IMG/VR virus record: IMGVR_UViG_2534681673_000006
Location: 1 to 15,337 of that record
Direction: 5' to 3' (one strand)
DNA: 15,337 bases
DNA from: a virus
Taxonomy: Duplodnaviria; Heunggongvirae; Uroviricota; Caudoviricetes
Below the pieces are notes generated by a model, which did no database searches, was not told the origin of the DNA, and saw nothing but the letters and a program-made list of their open reading frames with translations. The first letter of the stretch is position 1, and each line of letters begins with the position of its first letter. The position numbers and the translations under genes are program-made. Positions 1,235 to 14,308 of the stretch are shown piece after piece.

Positions 1235-1247
1235 GCTGCTGACCTCA

Positions 1248-2909
1248 TTACACCCCGCTAAATTCTTCCAGTTTCTGGCGGTGGCTGTCGCTTATATCAA
1301 AAGCAAAATCCTCATGCTCTGCCTGGAATGTACCAAACGCCATCAGCGCCGCCACGCTCGGGTCTATCTTGTTCGGTGATTTTTTCTTGTTCGGCTTGAT
1401 ATTGGCGTTCGCGTCACTCTGCATCACGACGTTACTCATCGACCAGGACAACACCGGATCGCCACGATGCACAATCACCCTGCGGTTAACAAAAACTTCG
1501 AACGATTTCGCCGCCGGACTGAATCTGAGGTAGGTTTGCGGGAACGGCTCCACCTCAAAACCAGCCCCCTGTAATTGCGTCCTGAGATGCGTGGCGTTCC
1601 ACGTATCAAAGCCCACCAGCCTGATATTAAATTTCTCCGCATCCTGCATGATGTCATCTCTGATCCGGTCGTAATCAATGCAGTCACCTGGCGTTGTGCG
1701 TATCCAGCCCGCTTTAGCCCACTGGCGATAGACAGCGCGGTTTTTATTGGCGGGGTTCTGTAGCTGGAACTCCGGCAGATAATGACGGGAAACCAGCATG
1801 ATATTTTTACCGACCGGAAAGGCATAGCACACGCTGGAAATATCGCTGGTTGATGATAAGTCCAGCCCCGCGTAACACTCCTGCCCGTGTAAATCTTCCT
1901 CCGTGAACGTTCCGGCACACTCAGCCCATGCGCCGTTACCCATCCACGGGGTAGCCCCCTGGCACCAGATATTAAATCGCTTTGTCATCATCTCCACCCA
2001 TTGCGACGGAATACCCCGCGCTTTCTGGATGGTTGAGGCCAGTTTTTCACGATCCACGGAAACATCGATGTTAGGGTTAGCCTTTATCCACATCGCCGGA
2101 TCATCAACCTCGTTTTCGTCGTCCAGTTCGTAAATCAGTACAAAAATTGAATCGTTGACCTCTTCGCCGTCCAGGATCTGGCAGCAATAATCATAGTGCT
2201 GCTTACAGGCTGAAACGACGTTACTGCCCGATGTGGTAATGGCAAATAACAGCCCTTCGGGACGTGCGCCCATCCCCAGCTCAAGCGCGGAATAAACGCC
2301 GTTATCGGGGTGTAGGTGGTATTCGTCCACGATGGAAAGGCTGGGGTTTGTTCCCTCGATGGTTGCCGCTTTTGCTGCCAGCGGCTTTAACAGGCTGTTG
2401 CTTTTCGGGTGCATCACCTTGTGGGCCTGAATATTCACCCGCCTGCGTAACGGTCGGGATAAAAGGCACATCTGACGCGCATCATCAAAAACGATCCGCG
2501 CCTGGTCACGGCTCACCGCTGCGGTGTAAATATCCTGCTGCCCGTTCTCCATAATCAGAAACCAGTTAGCCAGAATCGCGGCGGTCGTGGATTTCGCATT
2601 TTTGCGCGGCACTTCGATAAAGGCGCTCGTGTATTTGCGCCGTCCGGTGGCCTTAACCTTAAAGCCGAGGATGCACGCAAAGGCGAACTGCTGCCACGGC
2701 TCCAGCTCAATGGGTCTGCCACGCATCGGCCCTTTTACGTGCGGGCACACCCTGGAAAAGGCAATAAACCGCTCCACAACCTCACGATCGAACGTGTAAA
2801 GGGGGCTTTCAAGGTCCGAAAAGTACCGTTTAACGGCCTGTTTCAGCCGTTTACAGGCCGGAATTTTGCCCGTTTTTACGTCTTCTGCGTACTTATTCCA
2901 GGCGGTCAA
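1248..2909 (-). CDS. Terminase large subunit (Terminase_1 / HK97-like TerL)
   Basis: 553-aa ORF with N-terminal ATPase region (EVPRKNAKS Walker A-like, IVDEYH) and C-terminal nuclease region typical of TerL. Apparent TTG start at 2909 with AGGA SD; overlaps terS end by 17 nt. Confidence 0.85.
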   Translation of the reverse strand: MTAWNKYAEDVKTGKIPACKRLKQAVKRYFSDLESPLYTFDREVVERFIAFSRVCPHVKGPMRGRPIELEPWQQFAFACILGFKVKATGRRKYTSAFIEVPRKNAKSTTAAILANWFLIMENGQQDIYTAAVSRDQARIVFDDARQMCLLSRPLRRRVNIQAHKVMHPKSNSLLKPLAAKAATIEGTNPSLSIVDEYHLHPDNGVYSALELGMGARPEGLLFAITTSGSNVVSACKQHYDYCCQILDGEEVNDSIFVLIYELDDENEVDDPAMWIKANPNIDVSVDREKLASTIQKARGIPSQWVEMMTKRFNIWCQGATPWMGNGAWAECAGTFTEEDLHGQECYAGLDLSSTSDISSVCYAFPVGKNIMLVSRHYLPEFQLQNPANKNRAVYRQWAKAGWIRTTPGDCIDYDRIRDDIMQDAEKFNIRLVGFDTWNATHLRTQLQGAGFEVEPFPQTYLRFSPAAKSFEVFVNRRVIVHRGDPVLSWSMSNVVMQSDANANIKPNKKKSPNKIDPSVAALMAFGTFQAEHEDFAFDISDSHRQKLEEFSGV

Positions 2910-3249
2910 GCTCGTCCTCTTCTTCTGTTTCCGGTGGATTTTTACGGCGGCTTATCGGGTCAAAACCGAGCAAGGAGGCCATTTTTATCATCACTCTTTC
3001 AGCGTCGGATTTTGCGCTTAATGCGGGGTTTCTGCTCTCGCCGCCCTGACTGTTAACAATGCTGAACCCGCGCGCCGCAAGGTCTGCAACGGCTTTCCGG
3101 TAAATGGAGTAGTTGACACAATACAGTTCCAGATTGCTCCAGTCGGCGGGGGTCAGGTCTCCCCGTTCCGCAAGCTGCCGCGATTTTTCCCGCCACTGCT
3201 TCACGGCGATATCATCCAGGTAGGCGGGGGCTTTCGGTGGTCTTGCCAT
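2893..3249 (-). CDS. Terminase small subunit, P27 family
   Basis: 118 aa; conserved P27-family TerS pattern (KQWREK...LELYCVNYSIYRKA...NPALSA...LGFDPISRRK) with acidic C-terminus. Sits directly upstream of terL. Confidence 0.75.
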   Translation of the reverse strand: MARPPKAPAYLDDIAVKQWREKSRQLAERGDLTPADWSNLELYCVNYSIYRKAVADLAARGFSIVNSQGGESRNPALSAKSDAERVMIKMASLLGFDPISRRKNPPETEEEDELDRLE

Positions 3250-3538
3250 GCTTATTTTTTCGCCAGATTATTTTTCAAAAAATTCCCGTGCATAAAAATT
3301 TGAGGAGGCGTTCGGTGCCCGGCGGGGTCGGGTTGGTCCTGAAAACGCCCCCCACCCCGTCATACAGCCTCATCAGCGATTGCGGAAACATTCCATAACC
3401 TCGCGGTCACGGTCGGTTAATCGCTTCGCTGTGATGCGTTCTGCGCGTCCTGACGCTTTATCTTTATGCCCTGTTTCCTGTGTCTTCCATGCGTCACGCT
3501 GCCTTATAAGTCCACGGATAAGGCGGTTTTGCTCCCGC
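3250..3538. other. HNH-terS intergenic region; candidate cos site (G-rich quasi-palindrome about 3317-3359)
   Basis: 289-bp non-coding gap at the position where HK97-like cos phages carry cos, between HNH and TerS. Contains gcccggcggggtcgggttgg ... cgccccccaccccg. Positional inference only. Confidence 0.3.
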
Positions 3539-3979
3539 TCATTCATCAGCGTCATACATCCAGTTATTGCGGTTAGCGGCCCGTTCTTCCTCTTCACGAA
3601 ATCCACCTGCGGCACGCTTGCTTTTTGTTGCCGGATCAAGCCATTTCGTTTTCTGGTTATGACACGCCTGGCACAATGGTTGATGGTTCCATTCGGGCCA
3701 GAAGAGAACATCATCACCGCCATTAATCGGGATAATGTGATCCACCACCACGGCGGGCGTATATATCCCCTTCTCAAGGCATCGCACGCATAACGGGTTT
3801 TTACTCAGATACATGGCGCGGTATTTGTCCCACTGTCTGGAATATCCACGCGCGCGGCGGTGTCCTCGTCTGGCATCCTCTGCACGCCATGCCGCCCGCC
3901 TGTGCTCCTCACACTTGCCGGATTTAACGCGCCTGTTACAGCCTGGTTCTGTGCATCGTCTTAATGGTTGCCACGGCAT
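3539..3979 (-). CDS. HNH endonuclease (phage packaging-associated)
   Basis: 146 aa; Cys-rich N-terminus (CTEPGCNRRV...CEEH) and HNH core VVDHIIPINGGDDVLFWPEWNHQPLCQACHNQKT. Adjacent to terS as in HK97-type cos systems. Confidence 0.8.
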   Translation of the reverse strand: MPWQPLRRCTEPGCNRRVKSGKCEEHRRAAWRAEDARRGHRRARGYSRQWDKYRAMYLSKNPLCVRCLEKGIYTPAVVVDHIIPINGGDDVLFWPEWNHQPLCQACHNQKTKWLDPATKSKRAAGGFREEEERAANRNNWMYDADE

Positions 3980-4275
3980 CAGTACACCCCCACATCACGG
4001 TAAGCCGTCCAGAGTGCGCCTATCGTCATGGGTACGCGTGTTTTTGCGTTATCCGCGACAATCTGGCGATTTTCATACAGGTGAGCGATAAACATCATGC
4101 AGCCAATCTTTATGGCTGGCGTGAACTCCAGCCCGTCATCAAAGCGCCTGCCTATGTGTATCTGGCACGCCTCAAGCGATGCGGCAATGTATCCGCTGAT
4201 TAACTGGTCTTCATCGTCGCCATCGATGCGGCAATGGAGTTTCACTTCTTCCAGGGTGATAAGTTCTTCTGTCAT
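3979..4275 (-). CDS. Head-tail connector protein (gp6-like)
   Basis: 98 aa; N-terminus ITLEEVKLHCRIDGDDEDQLISGYIAASLEA is the gp6-like connector signature. Stop overlaps the HNH start (TGATG). Confidence 0.7.
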   Translation of the reverse strand: MTEELITLEEVKLHCRIDGDDEDQLISGYIAASLEACQIHIGRRFDDGLEFTPAIKIGCMMFIAHLYENRQIVADNAKTRVPMTIGALWTAYRDVGVY

Positions 4276-4610
4276 TTTTCCGCGCCCTCACGACAAAGAA
4301 TTTCAAGGCGTGTCCTGGCGGCATCCGGCAGCGGCTGCCCGATGATATTCAGTACACGCCCCGCCAGCGGCCCCGTACTGACCTTTATCCGACTGGTGGC
4401 GTTGATGTCCTTCCGGTACCGTATCCAGATCCTTACGGTACCAATCGCCAGCTCTGCGCCCGATGAAATGGCCTCCTTGCTGCTGATCATGTTCACGCTT
4501 GCCCAGAGTGTGTGACCGTCCTCCCACGTTTCGAGTATTTCGCCCGTCATGGCTCTGGTCTGTTTCAGGGTCTGAATCGTTATCCTGTCACGCAGTCGCC
4601 CTATGTTCAT
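4272..4610 (-). CDS. Head closure / head-tail adaptor protein (SPP1 gp16 / HK97 gp9-like)
   Basis: Start taken at ATG 4610 (MNIGRLRDRITIQ...), which overlaps the portal stop as ATGA. Size and IRYRKDI motif fit head-tail joining proteins. The ORF track's longer start at 4652 lies inside portal. Confidence 0.65.
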   Translation of the reverse strand: MNIGRLRDRITIQTLKQTRAMTGEILETWEDGHTLWASVNMISSKEAISSGAELAIGTVRIWIRYRKDINATSRIKVSTGPLAGRVLNIIGQPLPDAARTRLEILCREGAEK

Positions 4611-5818
4611 TCCGGTTTTTCTCCCTCGCTGATTTTTACTTCCTGTTTCCATGCCTGGCTGAACTCATCACCACCATCACGCGGTGACAGTCCTTCACGT
4701 TCGCGGGCTTCGTTCGGACACATAACGCCGGATTTGATGCCGCGCTCATAGGTGGCAAAGCGTTCGCCAGGTGTGGCCCGTAACAGGTCCGCGCTGTCAA
4801 ACTCCACCTGATACCGGATACCAGGTACAGGCGAGGCCACCAGCAGGGCGTTTTTTATCTGCTGCTCAAAGTTCGCCAGCCACGGGCGCATCGTCATGGT
4901 GAGAAATGCGCGGCTTGCCTCGCTGAAATTGCTGTAGGTGCTGTTGCTGTATTCCTGCAAAAAAATCGGCGAGACGTTGAACATTCGGGCGATGTCTTCA
5001 ATGGTGAAGCGACGGGAGGCCAGCCATTCAGCATCCTGATTACTCATGCCCAGCTGCTGATAGCTCATACCCCCTTCAAGGATGGGCGTTTTTCCGGCGT
5101 TTCTGGCCCCTTTGTAGCGTTCCAGTGCGGCTAATGCCTGTTTGCCCTTCACGCCGTCCAGCCATTCGCCTGACGTGATAACCCCTGCCGCCATCATGCC
5201 ATCACGCATCACGCTCGCGCCGTGGCGTTGTTGGGCCAGCCCAAGCCCCAGCGATTCGCGGCAGATGGTTACAGGTGAGCGCCCCATAAAGCCGTCATCC
5301 GTGGAGTAACGAAGGTGAAGTACTTCCCACGGTAAATAGTTGCGGGTGTTTCCGGTGTAGGCGTCAGTGATGCAGTAGCGCCAGTTGTGTTCGCCTGTCT
5401 GCTCCACGTTCACCGACTGCGGCGGGTAAGGATGTAAAGCCGCCGGAAAACCATCACGCCCCCACTGAATCACCGCATAAGCATTACCGTTTAACAGGCA
5501 GTGGCGGATCATCATTCGCTTAAACTGGTAGGGGGTTTGCCATGCGTTCGGGCGCTCGTTGAGGATGTGATCGACCGGATGAGAATCAAGCCACTCGCGG
5601 GCCTCCTTCCCCTTCTCATTGCGTACCAGGTACAGGTAACACGGCATGGTAGCCACCGCCTCAGAGATGACCGTGACGGCGTTCATGACGGCGGGCAGTG
5701 ATTCCGCTGTCCCCGATGATACGTACTCACCCGCCCCCGTGTTCGATGTGCCAGCCAGCGCCATAAATTCATCAAGCGTCATGCTGCGCTGCTCTTTTTT
5801 TCTTCTGAAAGGCCACAT
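4607..5818 (-). CDS. Portal protein, HK97 family
   Basis: 403 aa; LLNGNAYAVIQW, LHLRYSTDDGFMGRSP, GKTPILEGGMSYQQLGMSNQDAEWLASRRFTIEDIARMFNVSP match the HK97 portal family pattern. Strong GGGGGTG SD. Confidence 0.85.
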   Translation of the reverse strand: MWPFRRKKEQRSMTLDEFMALAGTSNTGAGEYVSSGTAESLPAVMNAVTVISEAVATMPCYLYLVRNEKGKEAREWLDSHPVDHILNERPNAWQTPYQFKRMMIRHCLLNGNAYAVIQWGRDGFPAALHPYPPQSVNVEQTGEHNWRYCITDAYTGNTRNYLPWEVLHLRYSTDDGFMGRSPVTICRESLGLGLAQQRHGASVMRDGMMAAGVITSGEWLDGVKGKQALAALERYKGARNAGKTPILEGGMSYQQLGMSNQDAEWLASRRFTIEDIARMFNVSPIFLQEYSNSTYSNFSEASRAFLTMTMRPWLANFEQQIKNALLVASPVPGIRYQVEFDSADLLRATPGERFATYERGIKSGVMCPNEAREREGLSPRDGGDEFSQAWKQEVKISEGEKPE

Positions 5819-5819
5819 A

Positions 5820-6392
5820 TCACACCCCCGCTAAATCCACCCACCAGCGGCGATTATCCGCACGCGGCATTTTTTCGGGGTGCTGCTCATACAGGGAACG
5901 GCGGGCCAGCTCCACGCCGGAATCAGGGTAAGCCGGAACGGATGTAACGGTAATTTCGTACAGTTCCGCCACCAGCACGGTGCGCACGCATGGATCTGTT
6001 GTGGTATCCCATACATCCTTACGGGAACGAAAGCCAAAGCTCATGCCGGATATATCACCACGTTTAACCAGTTCGATAACGTCGCGCCCTGTGCTGGTAT
6101 CCGGTGGGGTCAGTTCAAAGCGTAACCCTGTTTCGTCCTCTTCCAGTTTCAGCGTGCCGGAACGGGTACGCCCCAGTAACATGCTGTGGTCATGCTCATA
6201 CAGGCCGCGAACGTCATTACCCGCTGCAAGCCATTCAGTAAACGCTCCCCGCTGGAATTTTTCGTAAAACTCACCCCATAACAGTTCTGAAAGCTTATCC
6301 CAGCGAACAACGTAGCCCGTCAGCGTACCGGCTCCGCTGGTGGTGATTTCCGATGACCGGATTTCCATACTCTTCATAATTTTTTCACCCAT
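5820..6392 (-). CDS. Prohead protease, HK97 family (peptidase S78/U35)
   Basis: 190 aa; LTGYVVRWDK...GAFTEWL...LYEHDHSMLLGRT...ISGMSFGF...TSVPAYPDSG fits the HK97 prohead protease pattern. Start ambiguous: ATG 6392 or ATG 6377 (the latter has a GGGTG SD). Confidence 0.8.
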   Translation of the reverse strand: MGEKIMKSMEIRSSEITTSGAGTLTGYVVRWDKLSELLWGEFYEKFQRGAFTEWLAAGNDVRGLYEHDHSMLLGRTRSGTLKLEEDETGLRFELTPPDTSTGRDVIELVKRGDISGMSFGFRSRKDVWDTTTDPCVRTVLVAELYEITVTSVPAYPDSGVELARRSLYEQHPEKMPRADNRRWWVDLAGV

Positions 6393-6402
6393 AAAACACT
6401 AA

Positions 6403-6420
6403 AGGGGCTTTTAAGCCCCT
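6403..6420 (-). promoter_or_regulatory. Hairpin between capsid and protease genes; candidate partial terminator or mRNA stabiliser
   Basis: aggggctt/aagcccct inverted repeat in the 39-bp capsid-protease gap, followed on the minus strand by uaguguuuu. Read from sequence. Confidence 0.35.
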
Positions 6421-6431
6421 TCTGTATGCTG

Positions 6432-7589
6432 TTAATCGTCGTCCTGTGGCAGTTCCAGAATCTTGATCGCGTTCGAATCCACCACGCCACCGCCTAAATA
6501 TTTCTGCGTGAAAATTTTGATGAAACCCGGCTCTGTGAGGTTGTCCGGTCTGGTGCGAACACCTGTTTCGTGATCAACAATGTAGTAACCGCGTTTGAAG
6601 TCACCCAGGGCAATAACGTTATCAGGCATAAACTCCAGATATTCGACCGGAAGGCCCAGCAACGTATCAGGATCACCCGCCTGTAAACGGTCGCGCCAGA
6701 TGTAATCACCGTTCGCGTTCTTCACCTTCTGAAGTTTTGCCGCCGTCGTGGAGTTAACCACCCAGACCGCGTTTTTGCGGTATTTTTTACGTAATGCAAA
6801 TTTCAGGTCGATCAGCGGGTCCGCAGATGTCCACGCCAGAGATTCGGAAGGTTTAATTACCTGCAACGTACCAAAATCACGCTCTTTGTCGTTCTTCTCT
6901 GCACGGGGTACGGATAAAAAACCTTTTGCTTTTTTGTCACCGTCGCCCACAACCAGATCGCTTTCTTCGGTTTCCGTGAAGGTGTCGCCAATCTCACCCG
7001 TCAGCCATGAAAGGATGTCCACATCGGAAAAATCCACGATTTCCTGTGTGGTGCGCGGGTACGCATAGACCGGATACAGCTTAATGCTCACCTCGTTAAT
7101 CTGCGGGGTGCTGGTCTGTTCGCGTGTCTTACCCTCTTCACCGTGGTTAACGGTCGCACCGCCAGCGGAAACAAGCTGCTTAAACTCGTTGCTGCTGATT
7201 TTCTTCACGGTACAGATGCGGCGCATGGTGGACTCATCCGCCAGCATTCGCATGATTTCGGTGTTCAGCTCGGGGATAACGGTATAACCACCATCAGCGG
7301 GAACGCCTGTACTTAATGCGCGGGTTTCACCCGTCAGAATGTAGTTTCGTAGTTCTGCGGGGTCAGTGGTCTGACTGCTTTTACCTGGCTTGCTGCGCTC
7401 TTCGTCTGCAATGGCTTCAAGGCGGGAAATGTCTTTATCGAGGGATTCAGCTTTAGCGCGTAATTCGTCAAATTTTGCGCCCTCAGCATCGTTAAGACTG
7501 CGGTTTTCTTTTTCCGCGTTCTCCAGCATGTCACGCATCTGATTTTTAATGGCGGTTTTCTGCTGGCGTAATTCGATTATTCTCTGCAT
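6432..7589 (-). CDS. Major capsid protein, HK97 fold, with N-terminal coiled-coil delta (scaffold) domain
   Basis: Start taken at ATG 7589 (MQRIIELRQQKTAIKNQMRDMLENAEK...), a typical delta-domain N-terminus, then a ~280-aa HK97-like body. The ORF track's GTG at 7637 would run the frame through a terminator hairpin. Confidence 0.8.
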   Translation of the reverse strand: MQRIIELRQQKTAIKNQMRDMLENAEKENRSLNDAEGAKFDELRAKAESLDKDISRLEAIADEERSKPGKSSQTTDPAELRNYILTGETRALSTGVPADGGYTVIPELNTEIMRMLADESTMRRICTVKKISSNEFKQLVSAGGATVNHGEEGKTREQTSTPQINEVSIKLYPVYAYPRTTQEIVDFSDVDILSWLTGEIGDTFTETEESDLVVGDGDKKAKGFLSVPRAEKNDKERDFGTLQVIKPSESLAWTSADPLIDLKFALRKKYRKNAVWVVNSTTAAKLQKVKNANGDYIWRDRLQAGDPDTLLGLPVEYLEFMPDNVIALGDFKRGYYIVDHETGVRTRPDNLTEPGFIKIFTQKYLGGGVVDSNAIKILELPQDDD

Positions 7590-7626
7590 AAAAAAAGTCC
7601 TGGGGTTAAGTAAGGAACTCCAGGAC
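7590..7626 (-). terminator. Strong rho-independent terminator whose U-tract abuts the capsid ATG
   Basis: Minus-strand RNA: GUCCUGGAGUUCC-loop-CCCCAGGAC (11-bp stem, one G.U) followed by UUUUUUU then AUG. No SD between hairpin and start. Confidence 0.6.
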
Positions 7627-7679
7627 GCGGCAAACACTCAACCGTTTTTCATAAGGAAATCAGCAATCGCACCGATCGT

Positions 7680-7727
7680 TTTCCCGCCTGGTAATGAATA
7701 TTGGCGGGCACATTAACAGGCGGGAAA
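7680..7727. promoter_or_regulatory. Perfect 11-bp inverted repeat tttcccgcctg (26-nt spacer) caggcgggaaa upstream of the head operon
   Basis: Read from sequence at 7680-7690 and 7717-7727. Lies between the two minus-strand terminators. Confidence 0.45.
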
Positions 7728-7802
7728 GTGGCCCCAGCGTCCTGGCACCACGGGCGAGAATAATCATGATTCAGTTCGGGTAAAATATGCCGATCCGCTC
7801 AG

Positions 7803-7830
7803 TGAACAACGTGGAACAACCACGAACAAA
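7803..7830. promoter_or_regulatory. Three 10-bp phased repeats (minus strand TTGTTCGTGG TTGTTCCACG TTGTTCAC); candidate late promoter / activator site
   Basis: Plus strand gtgaacaacgtggaacaaccacgaacaaa. The 15-mer aacaacgtggaacaa (7805-7819) is identical to 251-265. A weak sigma70-like TTGTTC-16-TATTTT follows on the minus strand. Confidence 0.4.
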
Positions 7831-7837
7831 TAATTTA

Positions 7838-7870
7838 CAAAAAATAACAAAAAGCCGGATTGCTCCGGCT
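7838..7870 (-). terminator. Rho-independent terminator ending the early (replication) operon
   Basis: Hairpin agccgga-ttgc-tccggct at 7853-7870, 5 nt after the stop of the last early gene, followed on the minus strand by UUUUGUUAUUUUUU. Confidence 0.6.
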
Positions 7871-7875
7871 GTTGA

Positions 7876-8148
7876 TTAGCTGTCTGTGTAATTACGCCAT
7901 ATTTCATCGCTTACACCATCCATACCCATTTCAGCATAAGTGCGATCGACTGCCTTTCTCAGGTCTCCGAAGTTATCCGGCGGCTCCGGTGGCCTCTGTG
8001 CCTTCCTGGAACATTCCAGCCGTCGCATCGTAACCTGATGCCGTTCCTTGTCTGTCTCCACCAGTTGCATGACTTCACCCCATCGCGCCGCCGCCCTCCG
8101 GTAAAAGCCTTTTGCCTCGAGTTCCTCCGCTATGCGGTCATGTGCCAT
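7876..8148 (-). CDS. Small regulator-like protein, 90 aa, possibly PerC-family (tentative)
   Basis: Start at ATG 8148 with GAGGGGG SD, 10 nt after the SSB stop. IAEELEAKGFYRRAAARWGEVM resembles, from memory, PerC-type small activators. Last gene before the head-operon control region. Confidence 0.45.
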   Translation of the reverse strand: MAHDRIAEELEAKGFYRRAAARWGEVMQLVETDKERHQVTMRRLECSRKAQRPPEPPDNFGDLRKAVDRTYAEMGMDGVSDEIWRNYTDS

Positions 8149-8158
8149 CGTCACCCCC

Positions 8159-8569
8159 TCAGAACGGAATATCATCACCGTAAGGGTCATCGCCTCCCGC
8201 TGGTGGCTGATTACCCTGTGTGCCTGTGGCTTTGCGTCTGTTCCCGCCAGGACGTGCCGCGCGGGCACTGATTACGCTGTCCGCAATAACCTGATACCCC
8301 TGCCGTGTTTCCCCGTTCTGTCCGGTCCACTGGCTTACCTGCATCGTGCCGGATACGCTGGCAACATCGCCTTTTTGATGTTTAGCCAGGAAATCGGCCT
8401 GTTTGCCAAATGCGATAACCGATAACCATAACGTCGCCTGTCCGTCATGTGCCTGGCTGCATGGCAACGATACCGCCATACGCGCCAGAGTCATCGGTGT
8501 GCCCTTGCTGCTCTGTTTTACCAGCGGGTCGTCCACCAGCCGCCCGTAAGCTGCAATTTGTGCTGTCAT
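8159..8569 (-). CDS. ssb: Single-stranded DNA-binding protein
   Basis: 136 aa; N-terminal OB-fold pattern (IAAYGRLVDDP...WLSVIAFGKQADFLAKHQKGD...VSQWTGQNGETRQGYQVIADSV), Gly/Pro-rich linker and the canonical acidic tail DDIPF. GAGGTGG SD. Confidence 0.85.
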   Translation of the reverse strand: MTAQIAAYGRLVDDPLVKQSSKGTPMTLARMAVSLPCSQAHDGQATLWLSVIAFGKQADFLAKHQKGDVASVSGTMQVSQWTGQNGETRQGYQVIADSVISARAARPGGNRRKATGTQGNQPPAGGDDPYGDDIPF

Positions 8570-8578
8570 ATTGCCACC

Positions 8579-8884
8579 TCAGTGAAGCGATCCGGCGTTG
8601 TTCTTTTTCATCTCTTCCATCATTTTTTCAGTGAGCATTACGCACTGAAAACCCATGCTTTTGATGTCTACGGGTTTCATGCCTTTGTCTGTGGATATCA
8701 CAGGCAGAATATCCTGATACACATCGCGGTCAGGGTAACTAAGCACACAAAGCGCCCATGATGCCACGGGTGAGGATCCTTCGTCTGTTTCAACCCACCA
8801 GCCTGGTGTAGCTGCGCTTATTTGCAGAATCGTGATCCGTCCGTTGTGCTTGTAAAATTTTTCACCAAATTTTGGTTCGCTCAT
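8579..8884 (-). CDS. Hypothetical protein, 101 aa
   Basis: ATGA overlap with the upstream gene and strong GGAGAGGTGG SD. No recognisable domain. Confidence 0.55.
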   Translation of the reverse strand: MSEPKFGEKFYKHNGRITILQISAATPGWWVETDEGSSPVASWALCVLSYPDRDVYQDILPVISTDKGMKPVDIKSMGFQCVMLTEKMMEEMKKNNAGSLH

Positions 8885-9132
8885 GATTCCACCTCTCCGG
8901 TTTTAACGTTGATTGTTGTTACCTGTTCCGCTTCGGCAATCTCCCGTTCTGTCAGCGTGGCAAAGTTTGCCGCCGCTGTGGTCATGAATGCGCTTATCAG
9001 TTCGGGATGCTCCTTCGCGTATCCTTCCCCCGCGTGGCGGTCTATCGTTCTGATTGCCACCTTTAAAGCGTGCTCTGTCATGTCTAACGCTTTATATTTT
9101 GGCTGTGTTCTGTCTCTGCGTTTTTGTGTCAT
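8881..9132 (-). CDS. Hypothetical protein, ~83 aa (start uncertain)
   Basis: Start taken at ATG 9132 (GGGGAG just upstream) because the longer ORF to 9327 would run through the iteron array. ATGA-coupled to the downstream gene. Confidence 0.4.
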   Translation of the reverse strand: MTQKRRDRTQPKYKALDMTEHALKVAIRTIDRHAGEGYAKEHPELISAFMTTAAANFATLTEREIAEAEQVTTINVKTGEVES

Positions 9133-9145
9133 CTCCCCACCTATA

Positions 9146-9335
9146 CCCACTTTTACCCCCCACTTTTCACAATTCCCCATCTCGTTAAAGGCGTGGGATT
9201 TGTAATTTTTATCATGCTGTTTCATAAGGATTTTTTTGCTCCCCACTTTTTGGGATGTATACAGGTCAAAAAGTGGGGGATTGTGTTTAAATTTTGTTAA
9301 ATTCCCCATACCCACCACTTTTGCCACCCACTTTT
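9146..9335. repeat. Iteron array (CCCACTTTT, at least 6 copies, both orientations); candidate replication origin
   Basis: Copies at 9146, 9159, 9242, 9269 (inverted), 9314 and 9327, including a perfect IR ccccacttttt-17 nt-aaaaagtgggg. AT-rich spacers. Directly downstream of the replication ATPase stop (9335). Confidence 0.55.
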
Positions 9336-10318
9336 TACAGTGGCCCTACATCATCGCCGTCAACATAGATAACGCCGTCTTTTTCCAGCTTGCCCAGCCA
9401 GCGCCGGAAGTGCTTTATTTCGTACCCCAGTTTTTTCATGTCATCACGTAACAGCGGGATCGTGCACTTGTCGCCGTTCTGTGTGCGTGAACGGATACAC
9501 CCCCATAGCGCGGTATGGTTTTCCGTCTTGTTGCCTGCCTCTTCGATGCGCTCCAGTTCAACGGGAGGGCGCGGCTTATCCACCACCACCAGCGACGAGA
9601 TTAACTCCCCGTCAGCGTCGGTAAAAAGCTCCACCACCCGCAAATCATAGGCAGCCTCTTTGAGTTCCTCCGCGTCCTTCATTTTGGTGCATGAGATAAC
9701 CAGCGCTTCGCTTCCTGCGTCCTCCCTGCGTATCCGGTATTCAGCATCCAGCGAAGCACGAAATGCACTGGAACCGCGCGCGCCTTTCGTCTCATCCTTG
9801 CCGGAATGGTGAACCACCAGCACCGTGGCCCCTGTGCGTCGTTTCAGTTCGTCACAACCACGGATAAACGCCCCCATATCACGGGAATCATTTTCATCAT
9901 TCCCACCAAAGCAACGCGCCAGCGTATCCAGAATAATCATGCGTACAGGTTTACCCGTTTCCCGCTCCACCTGACGGGCAGCGATAACCATTTCATCAAC
10001 ATCAAGCGGGGCAGCCGGAAAGATGGGGCGGTTTACCAGATACAGATTTTTCACCTGCTCATCGTGCACAACCTCCCAGGCTTTTACACGACGCGGAACA
10101 CCTATACCGCCTTCACCAACCACATAGAGAACCGCACCATGTGCAACCCTGCGGCCTCCCCACTGGCGACCAGTGGCAACATGGCACGCCCACGATCCGG
10201 CAAGGAATGATTTATAGGACCCGCTAGCCCCGTATATGCTGCATAGCGATACCGCCGGAATAATCCCCTTAACCACGTAATCCAGTTGCGTGTCATATCC
10301 GGTAGATCCAACGCTCAT
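9335..10318 (-). CDS. Replication ATPase, AAA_25 / RepA-like (RecA-fold helicase or loader) with C-terminal winged-helix-like domain
   Basis: 327 aa; Walker A GASGSYKS, Walker B MIILDT, VVHHSGKDETKGARGSSAF motif typical of AAA_25 proteins. ATGA overlap with upstream gene. Confidence 0.75.
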   Translation of the reverse strand: MSVGSTGYDTQLDYVVKGIIPAVSLCSIYGASGSYKSFLAGSWACHVATGRQWGGRRVAHGAVLYVVGEGGIGVPRRVKAWEVVHDEQVKNLYLVNRPIFPAAPLDVDEMVIAARQVERETGKPVRMIILDTLARCFGGNDENDSRDMGAFIRGCDELKRRTGATVLVVHHSGKDETKGARGSSAFRASLDAEYRIRREDAGSEALVISCTKMKDAEELKEAAYDLRVVELFTDADGELISSLVVVDKPRPPVELERIEEAGNKTENHTALWGCIRSRTQNGDKCTIPLLRDDMKKLGYEIKHFRRWLGKLEKDGVIYVDGDDVGPL

Positions 10319-10734
10319 CGGTAGCGTGGTTTTTCGCTGGTGGTTTTTTCTTCCGCCGGCTCTTTCCCGCGCACCCGTTCCAGGTATTCGCGCCAGTTCT
10401 CCCGCATATGGCTGTGCATCCCTTCGGGGTAATAATTCGCATCAGTTACACCCGCCGCCGCCAGCTTGTGCGCAATGGCATTAATATTTGATGGCCTGAT
10501 GTGGCCTGCCTTGTACAGCCGGACACAATAGCGCCCCTCGTCGATGATTCTCAGGTCTGCCAGTTCATCCAGTTGATCATCAGCCAGCACAACGGGAGGC
10601 ACATTATCGCCAGCCAGTCGCCCGTCCTGTTCCTGCCACTGTTTCGCATGTGCCCAGGCATCACTACCCGCAAAAATAATGACTTCGGTCATCTTGTCGT
10701 AAGGCTGTTTTTTTAAGTTCGGTGCGCTTTTCAT
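10315..10734 (-). CDS. Hypothetical protein, 139 aa, translationally coupled to the replication ATPase
   Basis: ATGA overlaps at both ends. No recognisable domain; position suggests a replication accessory role. Confidence 0.5.
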   Translation of the reverse strand: MKSAPNLKKQPYDKMTEVIIFAGSDAWAHAKQWQEQDGRLAGDNVPPVVLADDQLDELADLRIIDEGRYCVRLYKAGHIRPSNINAIAHKLAAAGVTDANYYPEGMHSHMRENWREYLERVRGKEPAEEKTTSEKPRYR

Positions 10735-11030
10735 TTCTTGCCCCTGAATCCGTTAATCATGGTTTTCAGCTTCTGGATGTTTGCCCGTGCCCTGGCGTTG
10801 CTGGTGGGCACGTTATGCGGCGCGGTCTGTACCAGAGAAAAATCACGCCGGAACTGATAAACAGGCATCACGCAATCATATTCGTAACCTTCACGGCGGT
10901 AAGTTACGCACCGTCCCGCCACGCCCTTAATCATTACCGTGCCGCCGTACTGGTCGCGGTAAATATCACCGCGCGTAAATTTAGGGTGAGTGTTGCCACT
11001 GGCAGTTAAGCCAGAATATTTAAGTTTCAT
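10731..11030 (-). CDS. Hypothetical protein, 99 aa
   Basis: GGAGA SD 9 nt upstream of ATG 11030; ATGA-coupled downstream. No recognisable domain. Confidence 0.5.
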   Translation of the reverse strand: MKLKYSGLTASGNTHPKFTRGDIYRDQYGGTVMIKGVAGRCVTYRREGYEYDCVMPVYQFRRDFSLVQTAPHNVPTSNARARANIQKLKTMINGFRGKK

Positions 11031-11035
11031 TATTT

Positions 11036-11269
11036 TTATTCTCCGGTGTGCTGTTCGCTATATCTGTCGTGCAATGTCTCTATTTCTTGTAGTTCCATTA
11101 TTACAGGCTCAAGAAGCGTTATTAATGCCGTGACAATTCTTGATTTTTGTTTGTCGCGTTCATTGTCGCCAAGTGTTTCAAGCCATATGCGCAATATTTC
11201 CAGCATGTTTTCACTGTGAGAAAGTGCAAGAAATACGCGTTCTGTTGTTTCGTGGTAAATATCACGCAT
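11036..11269 (-). CDS. Hypothetical protein, 77 aa
   Basis: GAGGA SD; start overlaps the upstream stop by 8 nt. No recognisable domain. Confidence 0.5.
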   Translation of the reverse strand: MRDIYHETTERVFLALSHSENMLEILRIWLETLGDNERDKQKSRIVTALITLLEPVIMELQEIETLHDRYSEQHTGE

Positions 11270-11495
11270 GGCTTACATCCTCAGGAAATTTTCTTCTGTA
11301 ACGCGCCTCTGCCACATATTCCGCATAATCGGCGGCGATATTCAGTACATCAAGCCCCGTTGATTTATATTCTCTCGTGGAAAGTAAGAAAAAAGCCGCT
11401 CTAATAAGTTCTGGCATTGACGAAAGCGCATCAGCCGCATCATCAGGAACGCCGGAAAATTCTTGTTTCAGGGAATTAAAACGATCATCACGCAT
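11262..11495 (-). CDS. Hypothetical protein, ~77 aa
   Basis: Start taken at ATG 11495 (GGGGGG SD), overlapping the upstream stop by 8 nt. No recognisable domain. Confidence 0.45.
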   Translation of the reverse strand: MRDDRFNSLKQEFSGVPDDAADALSSMPELIRAAFFLLSTREYKSTGLDVLNIAADYAEYVAEARYRRKFPEDVSHA

Positions 11496-11928
11496 AACCC
11501 CCCCCATTTTCACAATCAGCAACAAGAATATTTTTAGCGTCATTCAGCGACCGCGTTGCGGTGTATCGGATACATTCCAGGGCGAATAGTGTGTATTCTT
11601 CCCTTTCTTCCTTTTGTGCAAGCTCTGCTGTGCATTCAATATCAATAAGCGCGTGCATCAGCGTAGTGAGTGCGGCGGCGGCTGCGTCCGGTGTGGTTTT
11701 ATTGCACATGTACCCCTCCGCATTTTTTTCGTTAGAAATAAGCGTTCTTCTTTCCTGTTCATCGATCAGGAATACGCAGACCTCACCGCTAAGGCGTTTA
11801 AGTAAGCCGATGATTGCCCCTGATTCGCTGTCGGTCATCATGCCTGGGTAATCCTCTGCCAGTGCGCAAATAACTTCGATTTGGTGGGCGCGTTCTGCTG
11901 CCTGTTGTAGTGTGATTTCCTGGCTCAT
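11488..11928 (-). CDS. Hypothetical protein, 146 aa
   Basis: GGGGGT SD; ATGA overlap with upstream gene. No recognisable domain. Confidence 0.5.
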   Translation of the reverse strand: MSQEITLQQAAERAHQIEVICALAEDYPGMMTDSESGAIIGLLKRLSGEVCVFLIDEQERRTLISNEKNAEGYMCNKTTPDAAAAALTTLMHALIDIECTAELAQKEEREEYTLFALECIRYTATRSLNDAKNILVADCENGGGYA

Positions 11929-12125
11929 AAGCCTACCCCCTGACGAATACGGGCGGCGAATACCATCACGCAGCCAGCCGGGGATTGCTGGCGTGCGTTC
12001 TGTTCGCTAGTGGCCTCGATGGTAATCACGCGCGGTTGTGCCGTGCTCAGGGCGATAAAACGCCAGGTGAATTTATTCAGGTTGTGCAAGTCCCGCCCTT
12101 GCGGGTGTGTGGTATGATTTCTCAT
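11925..12125 (-). CDS. Small protein, 66 aa, first gene of the leftward early operon; possibly Icd-like (tentative)
   Basis: Start at ATG 12125 with GAGGT SD. HPQGR and FAAR motifs resemble, from memory, P4-type Icd-like proteins. Downstream of the divergent operator region. Confidence 0.4.
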   Translation of the reverse strand: MRNHTTHPQGRDLHNLNKFTWRFIALSTAQPRVITIEATSEQNARQQSPAGCVMVFAARIRQGVGL

Positions 12126-12152
12126 AGCTACCTCGATACTGTTGCTATCGTT

Positions 12153-12197
12153 GGTGGTTAGACGCCCTGCATGTGTTGCGAGCACTGCGGGGCGTTG
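12153..12197. repeat. Conserved ~45-bp stem-loop element, copy A; copy B at 12943-12992
   Basis: ggttagacgccc(t/c)g(c/t)atgtgtt...cactgcggggcgttg; about 85% identical. Both copies can form a 10-bp stem with one mismatch; loops differ. Confidence 0.5.
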
Positions 12198-12223
12198 CTT
12201 AATTTGAGTGACAAAACTCAAAC

Positions 12224-12279
12224 TGTGCGCACAGATTAAAATCATATGTGCGCACAGATTAAAATCATATGTGCGCACA
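12224..12279. promoter_or_regulatory. Operator array: three copies of perfect palindrome TGTGCGCACA in 23-bp tandem repeats, in the divergent promoter region
   Basis: Palindromes at 12224-12233, 12247-12256, 12270-12279; repeat unit tgtgcgcacagattaaaatcata. A partial half-site tgtgcgcc sits at 12317-12324 near a candidate TTAACA-17-TATTGT promoter for the RHH gene. Confidence 0.55.
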
Positions 12280-12353
12280 TGTCAATACTTAACATCTCAT
12301 TTTTTTTGCTGTATTGTGTGCGCCCATAAAGTCCATTTAAGTGAGGTGCATCA

Positions 12354-12551
12354 ATGTCTAGCGGTAACACAAACAACAAATCAGCAAAGAAAAATATTCG
12401 ATTCCCACATGAGCTTATAGATGGGATTGATGCCAGCGTTGAACAAGAAAAATTAACTAATCCTAGTGCTAATTTTTCCGCATGGGTCTTAGATGCCTGT
12501 GGACGCAAATTAAAATATGAACAGCGCCGGAAGGCCAAAGAATCAGAATAA
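12354..12551 (+). CDS. Ribbon-helix-helix (CopG/Arc-like) DNA-binding protein, cassette 1
   Basis: 65 aa; GAGGTG SD 5 nt upstream. KNIRFPHELIDGIDASVEQEK...SANFSAWVLDACGRKL fits an RHH strand-helix-helix. Paralogous to the 13113-13292 protein. Confidence 0.65.
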   Translation: MSSGNTNNKSAKKNIRFPHELIDGIDASVEQEKLTNPSANFSAWVLDACGRKLKYEQRRKAKESE

Positions 12552-12600
12552 TCACTATCAGCGCCGTGGTGTGAGGTACTACGGCGCATTGCTTTACAGG
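12527..12600 (+). repeat. ~74-bp near-identical junction element (second copy 13268-13341) spanning the RHH gene 3' end and a hairpin
   Basis: aaggccaaagaatcagaataat(c/t)actatcagcgccgtgg(t/c)gtgaggtactacggcgcattgctttacagg. Stem gcgccgtgg/ctacggcgc with a GAGG-containing loop. Confidence 0.55.
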
Positions 12601-12608
12601 GCAGTAAC

Positions 12609-12836
12609 ATGACCAACAACACACTATCACCAATACAAGACACGCAAACGCAAGATGATGAAATCATCCGGCAAAGGCAGTCAGAAGCCTGCGCCAGACT
12701 TGAGGAAGAACTAACCAGAACAAAAATACCACCACCAGCGCCGCGCTTAGTTCCACCAGAAAAATTTGCCCTTGAAGATTTTGTCGATAAATACCCACGG
12801 CGGCTTAAATCCGGCAAAAACCGACCGCCAGGATGA
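12609..12836 (+). CDS. Small partner protein, cassette 1, 75 aa, unknown function
   Basis: Starts MTN; C-terminal motif FALEDFVDKYPRR is shared with the cassette-2 partner (FVLDEFLKKYSR). Proline-rich middle. No known domain. Confidence 0.5.
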   Translation: MTNNTLSPIQDTQTQDDEIIRQRQSEACARLEEELTRTKIPPPAPRLVPPEKFALEDFVDKYPRRLKSGKNRPPG

Positions 12837-12999
12837 GTGCACAAAACCGAACTATGAAACGGATTATTCCGTTTCCGGGGCGTTTGTGTGTGTATAAAGA
12901 GTAAGCTATGCTCTTTTATAGCCATAATCGTTACCTCAATTAATGGTTTGGTTAGACGCCCCGTATGTGTTCCCATCACTGCGGGGCGTTGTTGTTTTG

Positions 13000-13092
13000 G
13001 GTGTATTTCACCTTTATTTTTAAATCTACATTCAGGTGAAATACACCGCAAGACTTTTTTTATCTTTTTTTTTGCGTATACTGAAATACACC
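13000..13092. promoter_or_regulatory. Operator/promoter of cassette 2: perfect 13-bp inverted repeat ggtgtatttcacc / ggtgaaatacacc plus a third half-site overlapping a TATACT -10
   Basis: Arms at 13000-13012 and 13035-13047 (22-bp spacer); tgaaatacacc at 13082-13092 directly after TATACT (13077-13082). AGGAG SD follows. Confidence 0.55.
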
Positions 13093-13112
13093 GATTATCA
13101 GGAGAACCAGAA

Positions 13113-13292
13113 ATGGCAACAGGTGCAAAGAACGCAAAATCACAAATGACAACGGTCAGAATCCCGCATGAGGTAATGACCGATATTGAGCAACTTAAAG
13201 AACCTGGCGAAAGTACCGCCGGATTTCTAGTTACGGCAGCAAAAGGCGAGATCAAACGCCGCCAGCGCCGCAAGGCCAAAGAATCAGAATAA
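13113..13292 (+). CDS. Ribbon-helix-helix DNA-binding protein, cassette 2
   Basis: 59 aa from ATG 13113 (AGGAG SD). TTVRIPHEVMTDIEQLK...TAGFLVTAAKGEIKRRQ is paralogous to cassette 1 with divergent DNA. Shared C-terminus RRKAKESE. Confidence 0.65.
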   Translation: MATGAKNAKSQMTTVRIPHEVMTDIEQLKEPGESTAGFLVTAAKGEIKRRQRRKAKESE

Positions 13293-13349
13293 TTACTATC
13301 AGCGCCGTGGCGTGAGGTACTACGGCGCATTGCTTTACAGGTACACACA

Positions 13350-13553
13350 ATGACCAATAAAGAATCAACCAATACACCATCGCAAAAAACGAACAGAGAG
13401 CACGAAAATATGGCGCTCGAGCATGAATCAGAAAGATTCGCTCCATGCGCTTTTGTCCTTGATGAGTTTCTAAAAAAATATTCACGTTCTGAACGGATGA
13501 AAATGGCAGCACAATACGGCCCCAACAAGCAAGGTAATTGCCCACCAGCCTGA
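13350..13553 (+). CDS. Small partner protein, cassette 2, 67 aa, unknown function
   Basis: Starts MTN; same position relative to the junction hairpin as the 12609 gene; shares the F.L(E/D)(D/E)F..KY.R motif. Confidence 0.5.
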   Translation: MTNKESTNTPSQKTNREHENMALEHESERFAPCAFVLDEFLKKYSRSERMKMAAQYGPNKQGNCPPA

Positions 13554-13621
13554 TCACGGTTATCATGTTCGGGCTTATGATTGTTGACACATACGGCGCA
13601 GCGGGTTAATTGTTCAGAAAG

Positions 13622-13649
13622 GCGGTTCCATATCGGGACCGCTTTTTTT
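13622..13649 (+). terminator. Rho-independent terminator of the plus-strand RHH operon
   Basis: Stem gcggttcc/gggaccgc (8 bp, one G.U), loop atatc, followed by TTTTTTT. Confidence 0.6.
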
Positions 13650-13765
13650 ATGCCTGAAAATACCCTATAGCATGGCTTTTCAGATTCACCAGGGCGAACG
13701 AATCCCCGCCCCTGTACGGGCGTATATTTCATCATGGTTATACCTCAGTATTATGGCGTTTATTC

Positions 13766-13789
13766 CCGATACCGAGATCCCGGTATCGG
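13766..13789. promoter_or_regulatory. Perfect 9-bp inverted repeat ccgataccg-agatcc-cggtatcgg downstream of alpA
   Basis: Read from sequence. No U-tract on either strand, so more likely a protein site or an mRNA 3' stabiliser than a terminator. Confidence 0.35.
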
Positions 13790-13829
13790 TCAATAATGGA
13801 TTGGTGGTGGCTGTGTGCCGCCAGTCTTT

Positions 13830-14018
13830 TTAGTGAACTGCCTTGCAGCTATCCTTCCAGGCCAAAACCTCAGATAAAGACCAGCCAACAGAACGCCCGC
13901 CAAGTTTACGACGTGATGGGAATTGTCCGGCCTTTTCCAGGCGGTAGCGGCATGAGCGGCTAAGGCCTGTTAGCTTTTCGCATTCTTTTTCACGTATAAA
14001 CCGATCAGTGCTTAACAC
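13830..14018 (-). CDS. alpA: AlpA-family transcriptional regulator / excisionase-like HTH protein
   Basis: 62 aa; RFIREKECEKLTGLSRSCRYRLEKAGQFPSRRKLGGRSVGWSLSEVLAWK matches the AlpA/Xis-type HTH pattern. Apparent GTG start with GGGGG SD. Adjacent to integrase. Confidence 0.75.
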   Translation of the reverse strand: MLSTDRFIREKECEKLTGLSRSCRYRLEKAGQFPSRRKLGGRSVGWSLSEVLAWKDSCKAVH

Positions 14019-14179
14019 TATTGCCCCCTTTCGTTTCTTAAAGAGTTATTTCGTGTTCTATTGCGTTGGGATGTGTCTGATTGTGTCAGGATGATTCAGA
14101 GTTGGCAAATGTTGGTGTCGCATGGTTTACAGAAAGAGGAATAATCAGGATAAAATCATTTAAATTCATGTTAATACAA

Positions 14180-14209: not shown

Positions 14210-14308
14210 CGCACGCTTTAACGCGTAATTCACTAATGTATAAAAAACCAGCTGAGCATTAAAAATCAGTAACTTACAAATCTGTATTCTTTTTGGCCTC
14301 TTGTTCGT

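Follow-up and report, generated by a model that had tools for sequence, protein, structure and literature searches.

A candidate RNA attenuator with two covarying alternative folds ahead of the capsid gene of a capsid-forming phage satellite

How does a phage satellite that builds its own heads set the time and the dose of their production? Phage-inducible chromosomal islands of the capsid-forming kind (cf-PICIs) make their own capsids and steal only the tails of phages, and the cf-PICI literature covered here mentions no promoter or terminator for the timing and dosing of the capsid. The question is raised by the 15,337-nt stretch of viral DNA analysed here (IMG/VR record IMGVR_UViG_2534681673_000006, positions 1 to 15,337; “the window”), which is a cf-PICI, and by the segment 7590-7870 on its minus strand, which is the control region of the packaging (head) operon. 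Within it lie a terminator and a conserved TTGTAAAT block, then TTGTTC repeats and a weak sigma-70 promoter, and finally a leader of about 160 nt that runs up to the major capsid gene. An original prediction, made from the DNA letters, had likened this layout to the lambdoid PR'-qut-tR' late unit, in which transcription stops before the capsid gene unless a helper or island protein suppresses termination. We find that the leader belongs to a large family in which one strand of the start-proximal hairpin can pair in two ways. Our tentative preference is that capsid output is gated by a cis-acting RNA attenuator combined with a translational operator, and not by Q-type modification of RNA polymerase.

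Read from the probable transcription start at about G7751, which the alignment of related loci places on the first base of hairpin HP1, the leader of the window consists of HP1, a second hairpin abutting it (HP2), a linker and a start-proximal hairpin (HP4), with a run of U residues between HP4 and the capsid ATG (Table 1). A 221-nt stretch folds better than 199 of 200 shuffled versions (z = -3.3). HP2 contains the 11-bp inverted repeat with a 26-nt spacer (TTTCCCGCCTG/CAGGCGGGAAA) that had been noted before; the repeat in fact reaches arms of 17 nt, which are 94% complementary and have 14 nt between them (7727-7711 and 7696-7680). The proposed 11-bp-stem terminator followed by seven U and AUG is likewise found (hairpin 7626-7597, T7 7596-7590, ATG 7589), except that its stem is not perfect: one A.C mismatch leaves 10 of 11 positions paired, and because of it a simple terminator scan (loop of up to 8 nt, perfect stem) missed HP4. 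The hairpin has a folding energy of -13.0 to -14.7 kcal/mol (z = -2.56 against shuffles), and with 7 contiguous G+C-rich pairs and U7 without a spacer it has the features of an intrinsic terminator, termination itself being predicted from the sequence. The original prediction had also stated that the capsid gene lacks a Shine-Dalgarno (SD) sequence. This does not hold, as AGGA at 7601-7598 precedes the ATG by 8 nt, a normal SD spacing, although it is hidden within the hairpin's 3' arm. The capsid start at ATG 7589 was correctly placed: in an alignment of capsids of 63-99% identity the N-termini coincide from M1 onwards, and the RefSeq annotation has this start too. A GTG at 7637 was ruled out as the start by the protein alignment and the RefSeq annotation.

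A feature overlooked by the original prediction is that the 5' arm of the terminator has a second partner. CCAGGACGC (7745-7737) pairs at 9 of 9 positions with GCGUCCUGG (7628-7620), and GCGUCCUGG is the terminator 5' arm; 7628-7620 can pair with either 7745-7737 or 7607-7597, one of the two helices being the terminator stem, as is expected of an attenuator. The 9-bp long-range helix of the window covers all seven G+C-rich pairs of that arm. For the full leader, the calculated energies are -66.0 kcal/mol for the terminator fold (HP1, HP2 and HP4) and -54.5 kcal/mol for the antiterminator fold, while in a nascent RNA of 142 nt, i.e. before the 3' arm of HP4 has been made, the antiterminator fold is the minimum-energy structure. 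Two other arrangements were considered and set aside. A 10-nt complementarity between 7765-7756 and capsid codons 2-5 is taken as chance, its upstream arm overlapping the -10 hexamer, where it would stay untranscribed. Attenuation by a leader peptide was rejected, as the candidate ATG at 7767, the sole ATG further upstream (a 35-codon open reading frame (ORF) over HP1 and HP2), has no SD, lies upstream of the putative transcription start and is not conserved in the diverged locus L066 or in the type B leaders described next.

The leader of the window is one member of a large family. About 235 loci with related capsids (63-99% identical) were collected from E. coli genomes, GTDB genomes and IMG/VR, the diversity coming from the IMG/VR scans; a scan of genome contigs with the capsid alignment returned only 5 loci. 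The loci (n = 234) were sorted by the 90 nt before the capsid ATG. Window-like leaders (type A), with a hairpin, U7-8 and the ATG, are found at 43 loci. Type B leaders, at 134 loci, carry GGUUUC(A/C)CGUC...ACGGAAACC, which ends 4-6 nt before the ATG without a U-tract, and the remaining 57 loci are of neither type. HP1 was found in 177 of the 234 loci.

To assess pairing, 52 diverse leaders were aligned and analysed with RNAalifold and with formal pair counts for the named structures, against slid controls. RNAalifold picked a long-range helix, GACGYGA:UCZCGUC, over the local 5' hairpin; its first strand is the HP1 loop with part of the HP1 3' strand, and its second is the 5' arm of HP4. All 7 pairs of this helix are retained in 52/52 leaders, and two of its columns vary with pairing preserved: 17:140 is UA (40), GC (8) or CG (4), and 21:138 is AU (48) or GC (4). 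The paired fraction is 99% for the long-range helix, 97% for HP1, 92.5% for HP2 and 92% for HP4, compared with 33-52% for the slid controls. Five of the nine HP1 pairs have changed on both sides and compensatory changes are seen in 9 of 10 basal pairs of HP2; the changes in HP4 are mostly one-sided. Three positions covary as a triple: the last, loop-closing base of the HP1 5' strand, its partner within HP1 and a bulged base of HP4 take only the states A/U/A, C/G/C and G/C/G in the unique leaders whose two motifs are readable, without exception. Covariation of this kind would mark two helices that exclude each other and are both in use.

The closed fold is also favoured in type B leaders, by 4-8 kcal/mol, and the fold energies together imply a default “off” state, reached by termination in type A and by occlusion of the ribosome site in both types. 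The type A terminator exists in 8 sequence variants among its 43 loci, all of them with the hairpin and 7-8 U. In one variant (the L009 type, with CC changed to UU) the mismatch in the terminator stem is repaired, and in L066, whose capsid is 69% identical, the inner stem sequence is different and its pairing restored. The U-tract terminator is confined to the sub-lineage of the window (43/234 loci). Since 134 of 234 leaders keep the architecture without a U-tract, the conserved function is the RNA fold and not termination. Termination gates before the capsid gene have nevertheless arisen repeatedly, as indicated by two further groups of loci. In one other lineage (L136, L216 and L218-220) a hairpin with U7 lies within the leaders. 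In two Symbiopectobacterium loci (L005 and L006) a Phage_antitermQ gene (Pfam E = 1.5e-36; L005 3540-4495) is driven from the conserved promoter with an HP1-like start, and a separate terminator hairpin with T6 lies 45 nt before the capsid ATG; here this same control region has apparently received an inserted Q module.

Outside the islands the family is hard to find. Among 50,697 phage records there was no significant match to the window leader, and the type B leader matched in just 3, at least one of which (16.5 kb, “induced prophage”) is on our reading of the record a mis-filed cf-PICI. The leader family thus appears to be essentially absent from real phages. A search of the whole window against Rfam 15 at E <= 1 gave no match relevant to the leader, which belongs to a widespread conserved RNA family of cf-PICIs that is undescribed so far. 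The sole Rfam hit, to the Brucella small RNA BSnc120 at 14161-14242 on the minus strand (27 bits, the gathering score being 114; E = 0.011), overlaps the hairpins ahead of alpA, and chance almost certainly accounts for it.

Upstream of the leader, two claims of the original prediction are confirmed: the early-operon terminator is present (stem 7870-7853 and a T-run, terminator scan), and the phased TTGTTC repeats occur as three perfect copies at 7829-7804, a pattern with a chance expectation of 0.01 in the window. An activator probably binds the triple as a set of tandem sites. In almost all loci TTGTAAAT is followed by three direct repeats in 10-11-bp phase, with a repeat sequence that varies by lineage (TTGTTC, GTTTACC, ATTACC and others). 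The geometry is nearly fixed: of 107 unique type B upstream regions, 101 have TGTAAA 86-87 nt from HP1, and in the 20 unique type A regions the distance is always 89 nt. A TATNNT hexamer ends 5 nt ahead of HP1, and TTTAC(A/T) lies 16 nt further upstream in one large type B subgroup. The corresponding hexamers of the window match 8 of 12 consensus positions, below the threshold of the promoter scan, i.e. the promoter is weak. A weak promoter combined with upstream tandem sites points to activator dependence. An alternative promoter, with the third TTGTTC as -35, 16 nt and TATTTT (7787-7782), keeps its spacing in L066, has no type B counterpart and is less likely.

Several features of related loci and of the island ends touch on these sites. 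In many lineages (e.g. L120, L126 and L096) the -35 position is taken by a G+C-rich hairpin and T-run (e.g. CCCCCG..CGGGGG TTTTCTTTAT), between the repeat array and the -10 hexamer, a terminator-like element inside the promoter, which may insulate the promoter from upstream read-through. Just upstream of TTGTAAAT, between the gene of a small conserved protein and the capsid promoter, L080, L073 and L068 carry large divergent cargo genes (414 aa, or 258 and 169 aa); the site appears to be an accessory-gene hotspot, possibly for defence genes. The TTGTTC-type array recurs in the window at 250-275 (minus strand), about 115 bp inside the left end of the island, and at 14301-14326 (plus strand); this second copy, inverted and extending as five TTGT repeats to about 14355, separates the int stop codon from alpA. 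The same recurrence, near att ends or in the int-alpA spacer, is seen in several E. coli island types. These extra arrays could bind an excisionase-like AlpA or be arm sites of the integrase, in common with the capsid promoter. Just downstream of the array by the island end, a tandem direct repeat, GGTGTAGTCA-CT-GGTGTAGTCA (211-232, minus strand), looks like a pair of integrase arm-type sites.

The preferred reading, attenuator plus translational operator, can be set out as a series of steps. The transcript of the upstream PerC gene would stop at its own terminator. The weak sigma-70 promoter (TTTACC, 16 nt, TATTCT) would be active only with an activator at TTGTAAAT and the three TTGTTC sites, candidates being island proteins produced after AlpA induction. 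Transcription from about G7751 would then yield the leader of about 160 nt with HP1, HP2, linker and HP4. In the default, thermodynamically favoured fold, HP1 and HP4 would form, HP4-U7 would terminate transcription and AGGA would be buried, such that most transcripts would end at 7596-7590 and the remainder would be poorly translated. In the alternative fold, CCAGGACGC (7745-7737) would pair with GCGUCCUGG (7628-7620), no terminator would form, and both the SD and the AUG would be exposed.

Some observations weigh against this scheme. The default fold is more stable by 11.5 kcal/mol in the window and by the 4-8 kcal/mol given above in type B, so the switch needs an effector. The covariation of the long-range helix goes back to few independent events, perhaps in 2-3 lineages, and most of its pairs never vary. 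With 134 of 234 relatives lacking a U-tract, termination would be an addition specific to the lineage, and translation too can be served by a U-run ahead of an AUG. The terminator may be leaky, if capsids are readily made upon AlpA induction. The promoter, scoring 8/12, was read from the alignment alone. As to the activator, islands with AlpA alleles of only 45-67% identity have one and the same TTGTTC array, and the capsid-promoter array of non-E. coli islands is not repeated elsewhere in the island above background; because of this, we treat AlpA as a candidate binder of TTGTTC, and as a lead only.

Table 1. Coordinates of the control-region elements and of the main genes of the window.
Feature	Position	Strand	Evidence or remark
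Intrinsic terminator of upstream gene	7843..7870	-	Stem 7870-7853 then TTTTGTTATT; terminator scan and inverted-repeat search
Conserved TTGTAAAT block	7833..7840	-	About -89 to -82 from inferred start; in nearly all related loci
Three TTGTTC direct repeats, 10-bp phase	7804..7829	-	About -78 to -53; 0 mismatches
Putative -35-like hexamer TTTACC	7779..7784	-	Aligns with conserved TTTAC(A/T) of type B; 16-nt spacer to -10
Putative -10-like hexamer TATTCT	7757..7762	-	Aligns with TATNNT at same position in 107 unique type B upstream regions
HP1, 5'-terminal hairpin with GACG loop	7728..7751	-	-15.6 kcal/mol
CCAGGACGC, candidate antiterminator strand (HP1 5' strand, loop and one more base)	7737..7745	-	Perfect 9-nt complement of 7628-7620
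HP2, long hairpin abutting HP1	7680..7727	-	-23.5 kcal/mol; the 11-bp inverted repeat of the original prediction
GCGUCCUGG, pairs with 7745-7737 or with terminator 3' arm	7620..7628	-	Inverted-repeat search, folding; CGUC core invariant in 52/52 aligned leaders
HP4, start-proximal hairpin, terminator stem	7597..7626	-	Arms 7626-7616 and 7607-7597, 10/11 paired, 8-nt loop
AGGA, SD-like, inside HP4 3' arm	7598..7601	-	Read from sequence; 8 nt to ATG
U7 tract between HP4 and start codon	7590..7596	-	7 or 8 U in 43/43 type A loci
HK97-type major capsid gene, first in packaging operon	6432..7589	-	Pfam Phage_capsid E = 2.1e-61
PerC-family gene, last of upstream (early) block	7876..8148	-	Pfam PerC E = 2.3e-44; also PHROG “transcriptional activator” families
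SSB	8159-8569	-	
AAA_25/RepA-like replication gene	9335-10318	-	
Phage_AlpA, 62 aa	13830-14018	-	Pfam
Tyrosine integrase	14393 to window end	-	

Could HP4 instead be mainly a translational operator or an mRNA-stability element, with the U-run as an S1-binding spacer, termination of minor importance and the timing set at the promoter only? The equivalent hairpin of the 134 type B leaders covers the GGA/GAG region of the ribosome site without any U-tract, and the succession of hairpin (GAGGA in the 3' arm), U-run and ATG recurs ahead of alpA in L047, L072, L080 and L085. Hairpins at the 5' terminus are known mRNA stabilisers, and HP1 would act as one. Capsids are, moreover, readily produced once alpA is expressed (10.1101/2025.02.11.637232). 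However, a G+C-rich stem of 7-11 bp with 7-8 U immediately after it meets the physical needs of an intrinsic terminator, at least 7 U are kept at 43/43 loci, and the 9-nt antiterminator complement, together with a long-range fold that is favoured at 142 nt, fits co-transcriptional control. We regard a purely translational role as a doubtful, though serious, competitor of the attenuator.

The attenuator may also be part of something wider. The cf-PICI capsid leader could be an undescribed riboregulator, in which a 5' hairpin pair and a long-range helix compete with the start-proximal hairpin, and which senses an island or helper signal to time the capsids; in the E. coli lineage of the window it would have been upgraded to a true attenuator and have co-evolved with PerC, which would then act on the leader or on its promoter. 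In this full form the proposal is speculative, and we think it rather unlikely to hold in all its parts. Of 38 type A leaders, 36 have window-type PerC upstream, as against 0 of 123 type B leaders, an association that is suggestive and confounded by linkage. The protein has no PDB relative by sequence, and its single-sequence AlphaFold model (four helices, pLDDT 83.5, pTM 0.37), with no Foldseek match at E < 8, is uninformative. Other genes occupy this neighbourhood in related islands. In L003 (2178-2720) and related type B islands without PerC, a ProQ/FinO-family RNA-chaperone gene lies about 0.5 kb upstream of the leader, and its product is a possible RNA-binding partner of the leader. O157:H7-type islands have a 355-bp insertion between PerC and TTGTAAAT (L001 3326-3690, compared with about 7850-7875 in the window) that encodes a 74-aa protein; homologues of 74-98 aa, with a “DHHDF...ATN.EQ” motif and no Pfam family, are encoded upstream of the capsid promoter in 111 of 211 related loci. 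As a regulator this protein was rejected, being absent from the window and from about half of the type A islands, and having a sequence that fails to track the array type.

The lambda-like explanation, in which RNA polymerase is stopped unless a protein antiterminator acts (Q of a helper, or PerC or AlpA of the island), accounts for part of the layout and is, in our judgement, improbable. What stands of the original claim of a gated head operon is the promoter-leader unit and a canonical-looking terminator abutting the start codon, with the hairpin and U7-8 kept at 43/43 type A loci; the lambda-like mechanism does not stand. A canonical hairpin with U7 does lie between the promoter and the first head gene, PerC is directly upstream, where Q sits in lambdoid phages, and it accompanies the terminator-type leaders at the frequencies given above. 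The Symbiopectobacterium relatives have a true Q gene and a terminator at this position, and terminator-like hairpins, as seen by eye, precede alpA itself. On the other side, neither Q nor any other recognised antiterminator family was found among the window ORFs scanned (Pfam, 20 ORFs; PHROGs), and the promoter is weak. Nor does this model account for the alternative RNA pairing, which is conserved. Reading by eye from the presumed start, we saw no TAnnnT in the first 25 transcribed bases (GTGGTGCCAGGACGCTGGGGCCAC) that could be a -10-like pause element. The PerC model suggests a simple helical protein with no structural match to Q or to anything else, and the association of PerC with the leader may be linkage, as L004 and L026 have only weak partial PerC matches and intact leaders.

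Dependence on a helper for head-gene expression is contradicted by published work, in which tail-less capsids form without a helper phage, alpA over-expression having been used to obtain capsids of EcCIEDL933 (10.1101/2025.02.11.637232). The O157:H7 islands, whose locus L001 we infer to be EcCIEDL933 itself, carry the same leader with U8, and together with the helper-free capsids this means that an antiterminator encoded by a helper is not needed. AlpA is required for cf-PICI induction (10.1101/2022.09.08.507074) and activates its own promoter (PMC6092414), and it had been proposed as a candidate activator in the original prediction; as a Q-like antiterminator it finds no support. The Q-like antiterminator AlpA of Pseudomonas aeruginosa, whose complexes with RNA polymerase have been solved, has DNA-contact residues at 128-142 and must therefore be much longer than the 62-aa protein of the window: it has at least 140 residues, with a C-terminal helix-turn-helix and an N-terminal ring in the RNA exit channel. 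Window AlpA gave no match to these complexes at E <= 1, its sole PDB sequence relative being 8c3t, a 73-aa “AlpA family phage regulatory protein”. In the window, alpA is itself preceded by a terminator-like hairpin (14170-14195, minus strand; GGCATAAAA..TTTTATGCC then TTTGTATT), and in the four islands named above the hairpin, U-run and ATG stand just before alpA, as at the capsid gene, so that hairpin, U-tract and AUG seem to be a recurring design in these islands.

It is very unlikely that the leader, once terminated at about 160 nt, is a trans-acting small RNA (e.g. on helper or host mRNAs), with read-through into the capsid gene secondary. In favour are its strong structure (z = -3.3), the terminator hairpin with a U tail that would form its end, and the ProQ/FinO-family gene 0.5 kb upstream of the leader in sister islands (L003), but most family members have no terminator and would release no discrete RNA, the conserved parts are accounted for by intramolecular pairing, and there is neither an Rfam match (window, E <= 1) nor a known target. 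The notion that the HP1 palindrome is a DNA operator for a dimeric repressor at +1 to +24, prompted by its conserved sequence and symmetry (GTGGC..GCCAC becoming GTGAC..GTCAC) and by an ORF of a PHROGs “transcriptional repressor” family at 11925-12278, can be given hardly any credence, as its halves are asymmetric (one extra A on the left, CC on the right), HP2 and HP4 covary too, and the loop-closing base of HP1 covaries with a base some 110-130 nt downstream, which only RNA pairing explains.

The identity of the island bears on all of these readings. The window carries int, alpA and replication genes together with its own HK97-type capsid, protease, portal, HNH, TerS and TerL genes (Pfam), the set that defines a cf-PICI, and no tail or lysis genes; all genes are on the minus strand, and in the gene order read from the Pfam hits the capsid gene is followed by prohead protease, portal, HNH, TerS and TerL. 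The host gene tqsA, which 5,423 of 5,426 E. coli genomes contain, makes up bases 1-137 and so places one island end at about base 138. From there the island runs beyond the end of the window, giving it a length of at least 15.2 kb, compared with a cf-PICI range of about 10-18 kb. DNA related to the window is found in 830 of 5,426 complete E. coli genomes, and its closest annotated relatives have an identical layout; EcCIEDL933 is a cf-PICI with this same layout (10.1101/2022.09.08.507074). A G+C-rich hairpin of 9 bp, followed by a tail rich in T, occupies 6401-6422 (minus strand) in the gap that separates the capsid stop (6432) from the protease start (6392). Two terminator-like hairpins thus bracket the capsid gene, an arrangement that could make capsid abundant relative to protease and portal.

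What the locus offers is a concrete control region for the timing of cf-PICI capsids, consisting of a promoter with tandem sites at fixed geometry and a leader family with two covarying, exclusive folds. The gate has been converted in particular lineages, into a terminator or into a Q-dependent unit, and the case is a warning against a lambda-like, helper-dependent reading of such an element. If the switch is real, it would be a new class of cis-regulatory RNA specific to phage satellites and a handle for engineering cf-PICI-based delivery particles; if the joint proposal with PerC is also true, it would give the enigmatic PerC/Pch family a native function.

Comparison with known systems shows where the island resembles, and where it departs from, each of them. 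With the lambdoid PR'-qut-tR' unit it shares the succession of promoter, short leader, intrinsic terminator and morphogenesis genes, as well as a small regulator gene directly upstream; the 6S RNA of lambda is 194 nt long, compared with about 160 nt for the leader here. Lambda, however, has a strong constitutive PR' and Q, whereas the window has a weak, apparently activator-dependent promoter without a Q homologue, and inside its leader there is a conserved antiterminator pairing for which a Q mechanism has no use. The likeness to attenuators and riboswitch platforms lies in the choice of 7628-7620 between 7745-7737 and the terminator 3' arm, with both folds covarying, and in the sequestration of 7745-7737 within HP1, a would-be anti-antiterminator. 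It differs from them in having no leader peptide and no known ligand-binding aptamer (no Rfam match), and in that the switch of most family members would control ribosome access only.

The putL element of phage HK022 is about 70 nt long and forms two stem-loops just downstream of PL (PMC9378689). HP1 and HP2 resemble it in being two adjacent stem-loops of 72 nt (7751-7680), without a spacer, at the 5' end of the transcript and upstream of a terminator, a likeness of architecture only. A covariance model of HP1 and HP2, run with filters off over HK022 22000-33500 (as the stretches 22000-30000 and 27500-33500, which should include the early region), gave a best score of 8.1 bits (E = 4.9), and Rfam reported no family on HK022 27500-30099, so that no curated put model was applied. 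The window leader also differs from put in that no -10-like pause sequence is seen in it, and a constitutive action on RNA polymerase, such as that of put, would leave a terminator within one and the same leader pointless as a gate.

Late operons that depend on an activator are known from P2/P4 (Ogr/Delta) and from SaPI/80-alpha (LtrC, RinA). Like these, the island has a weak promoter with upstream protein-binding sites before its packaging and morphogenesis genes. The sites themselves differ, P2/P4 having a TGT-N12-ACA dyad and the window tandem direct repeats at 10-bp phase with the TTGTAAAT block, and in the island the promoter is followed by what is predicted to be an additional gate at the level of the RNA.

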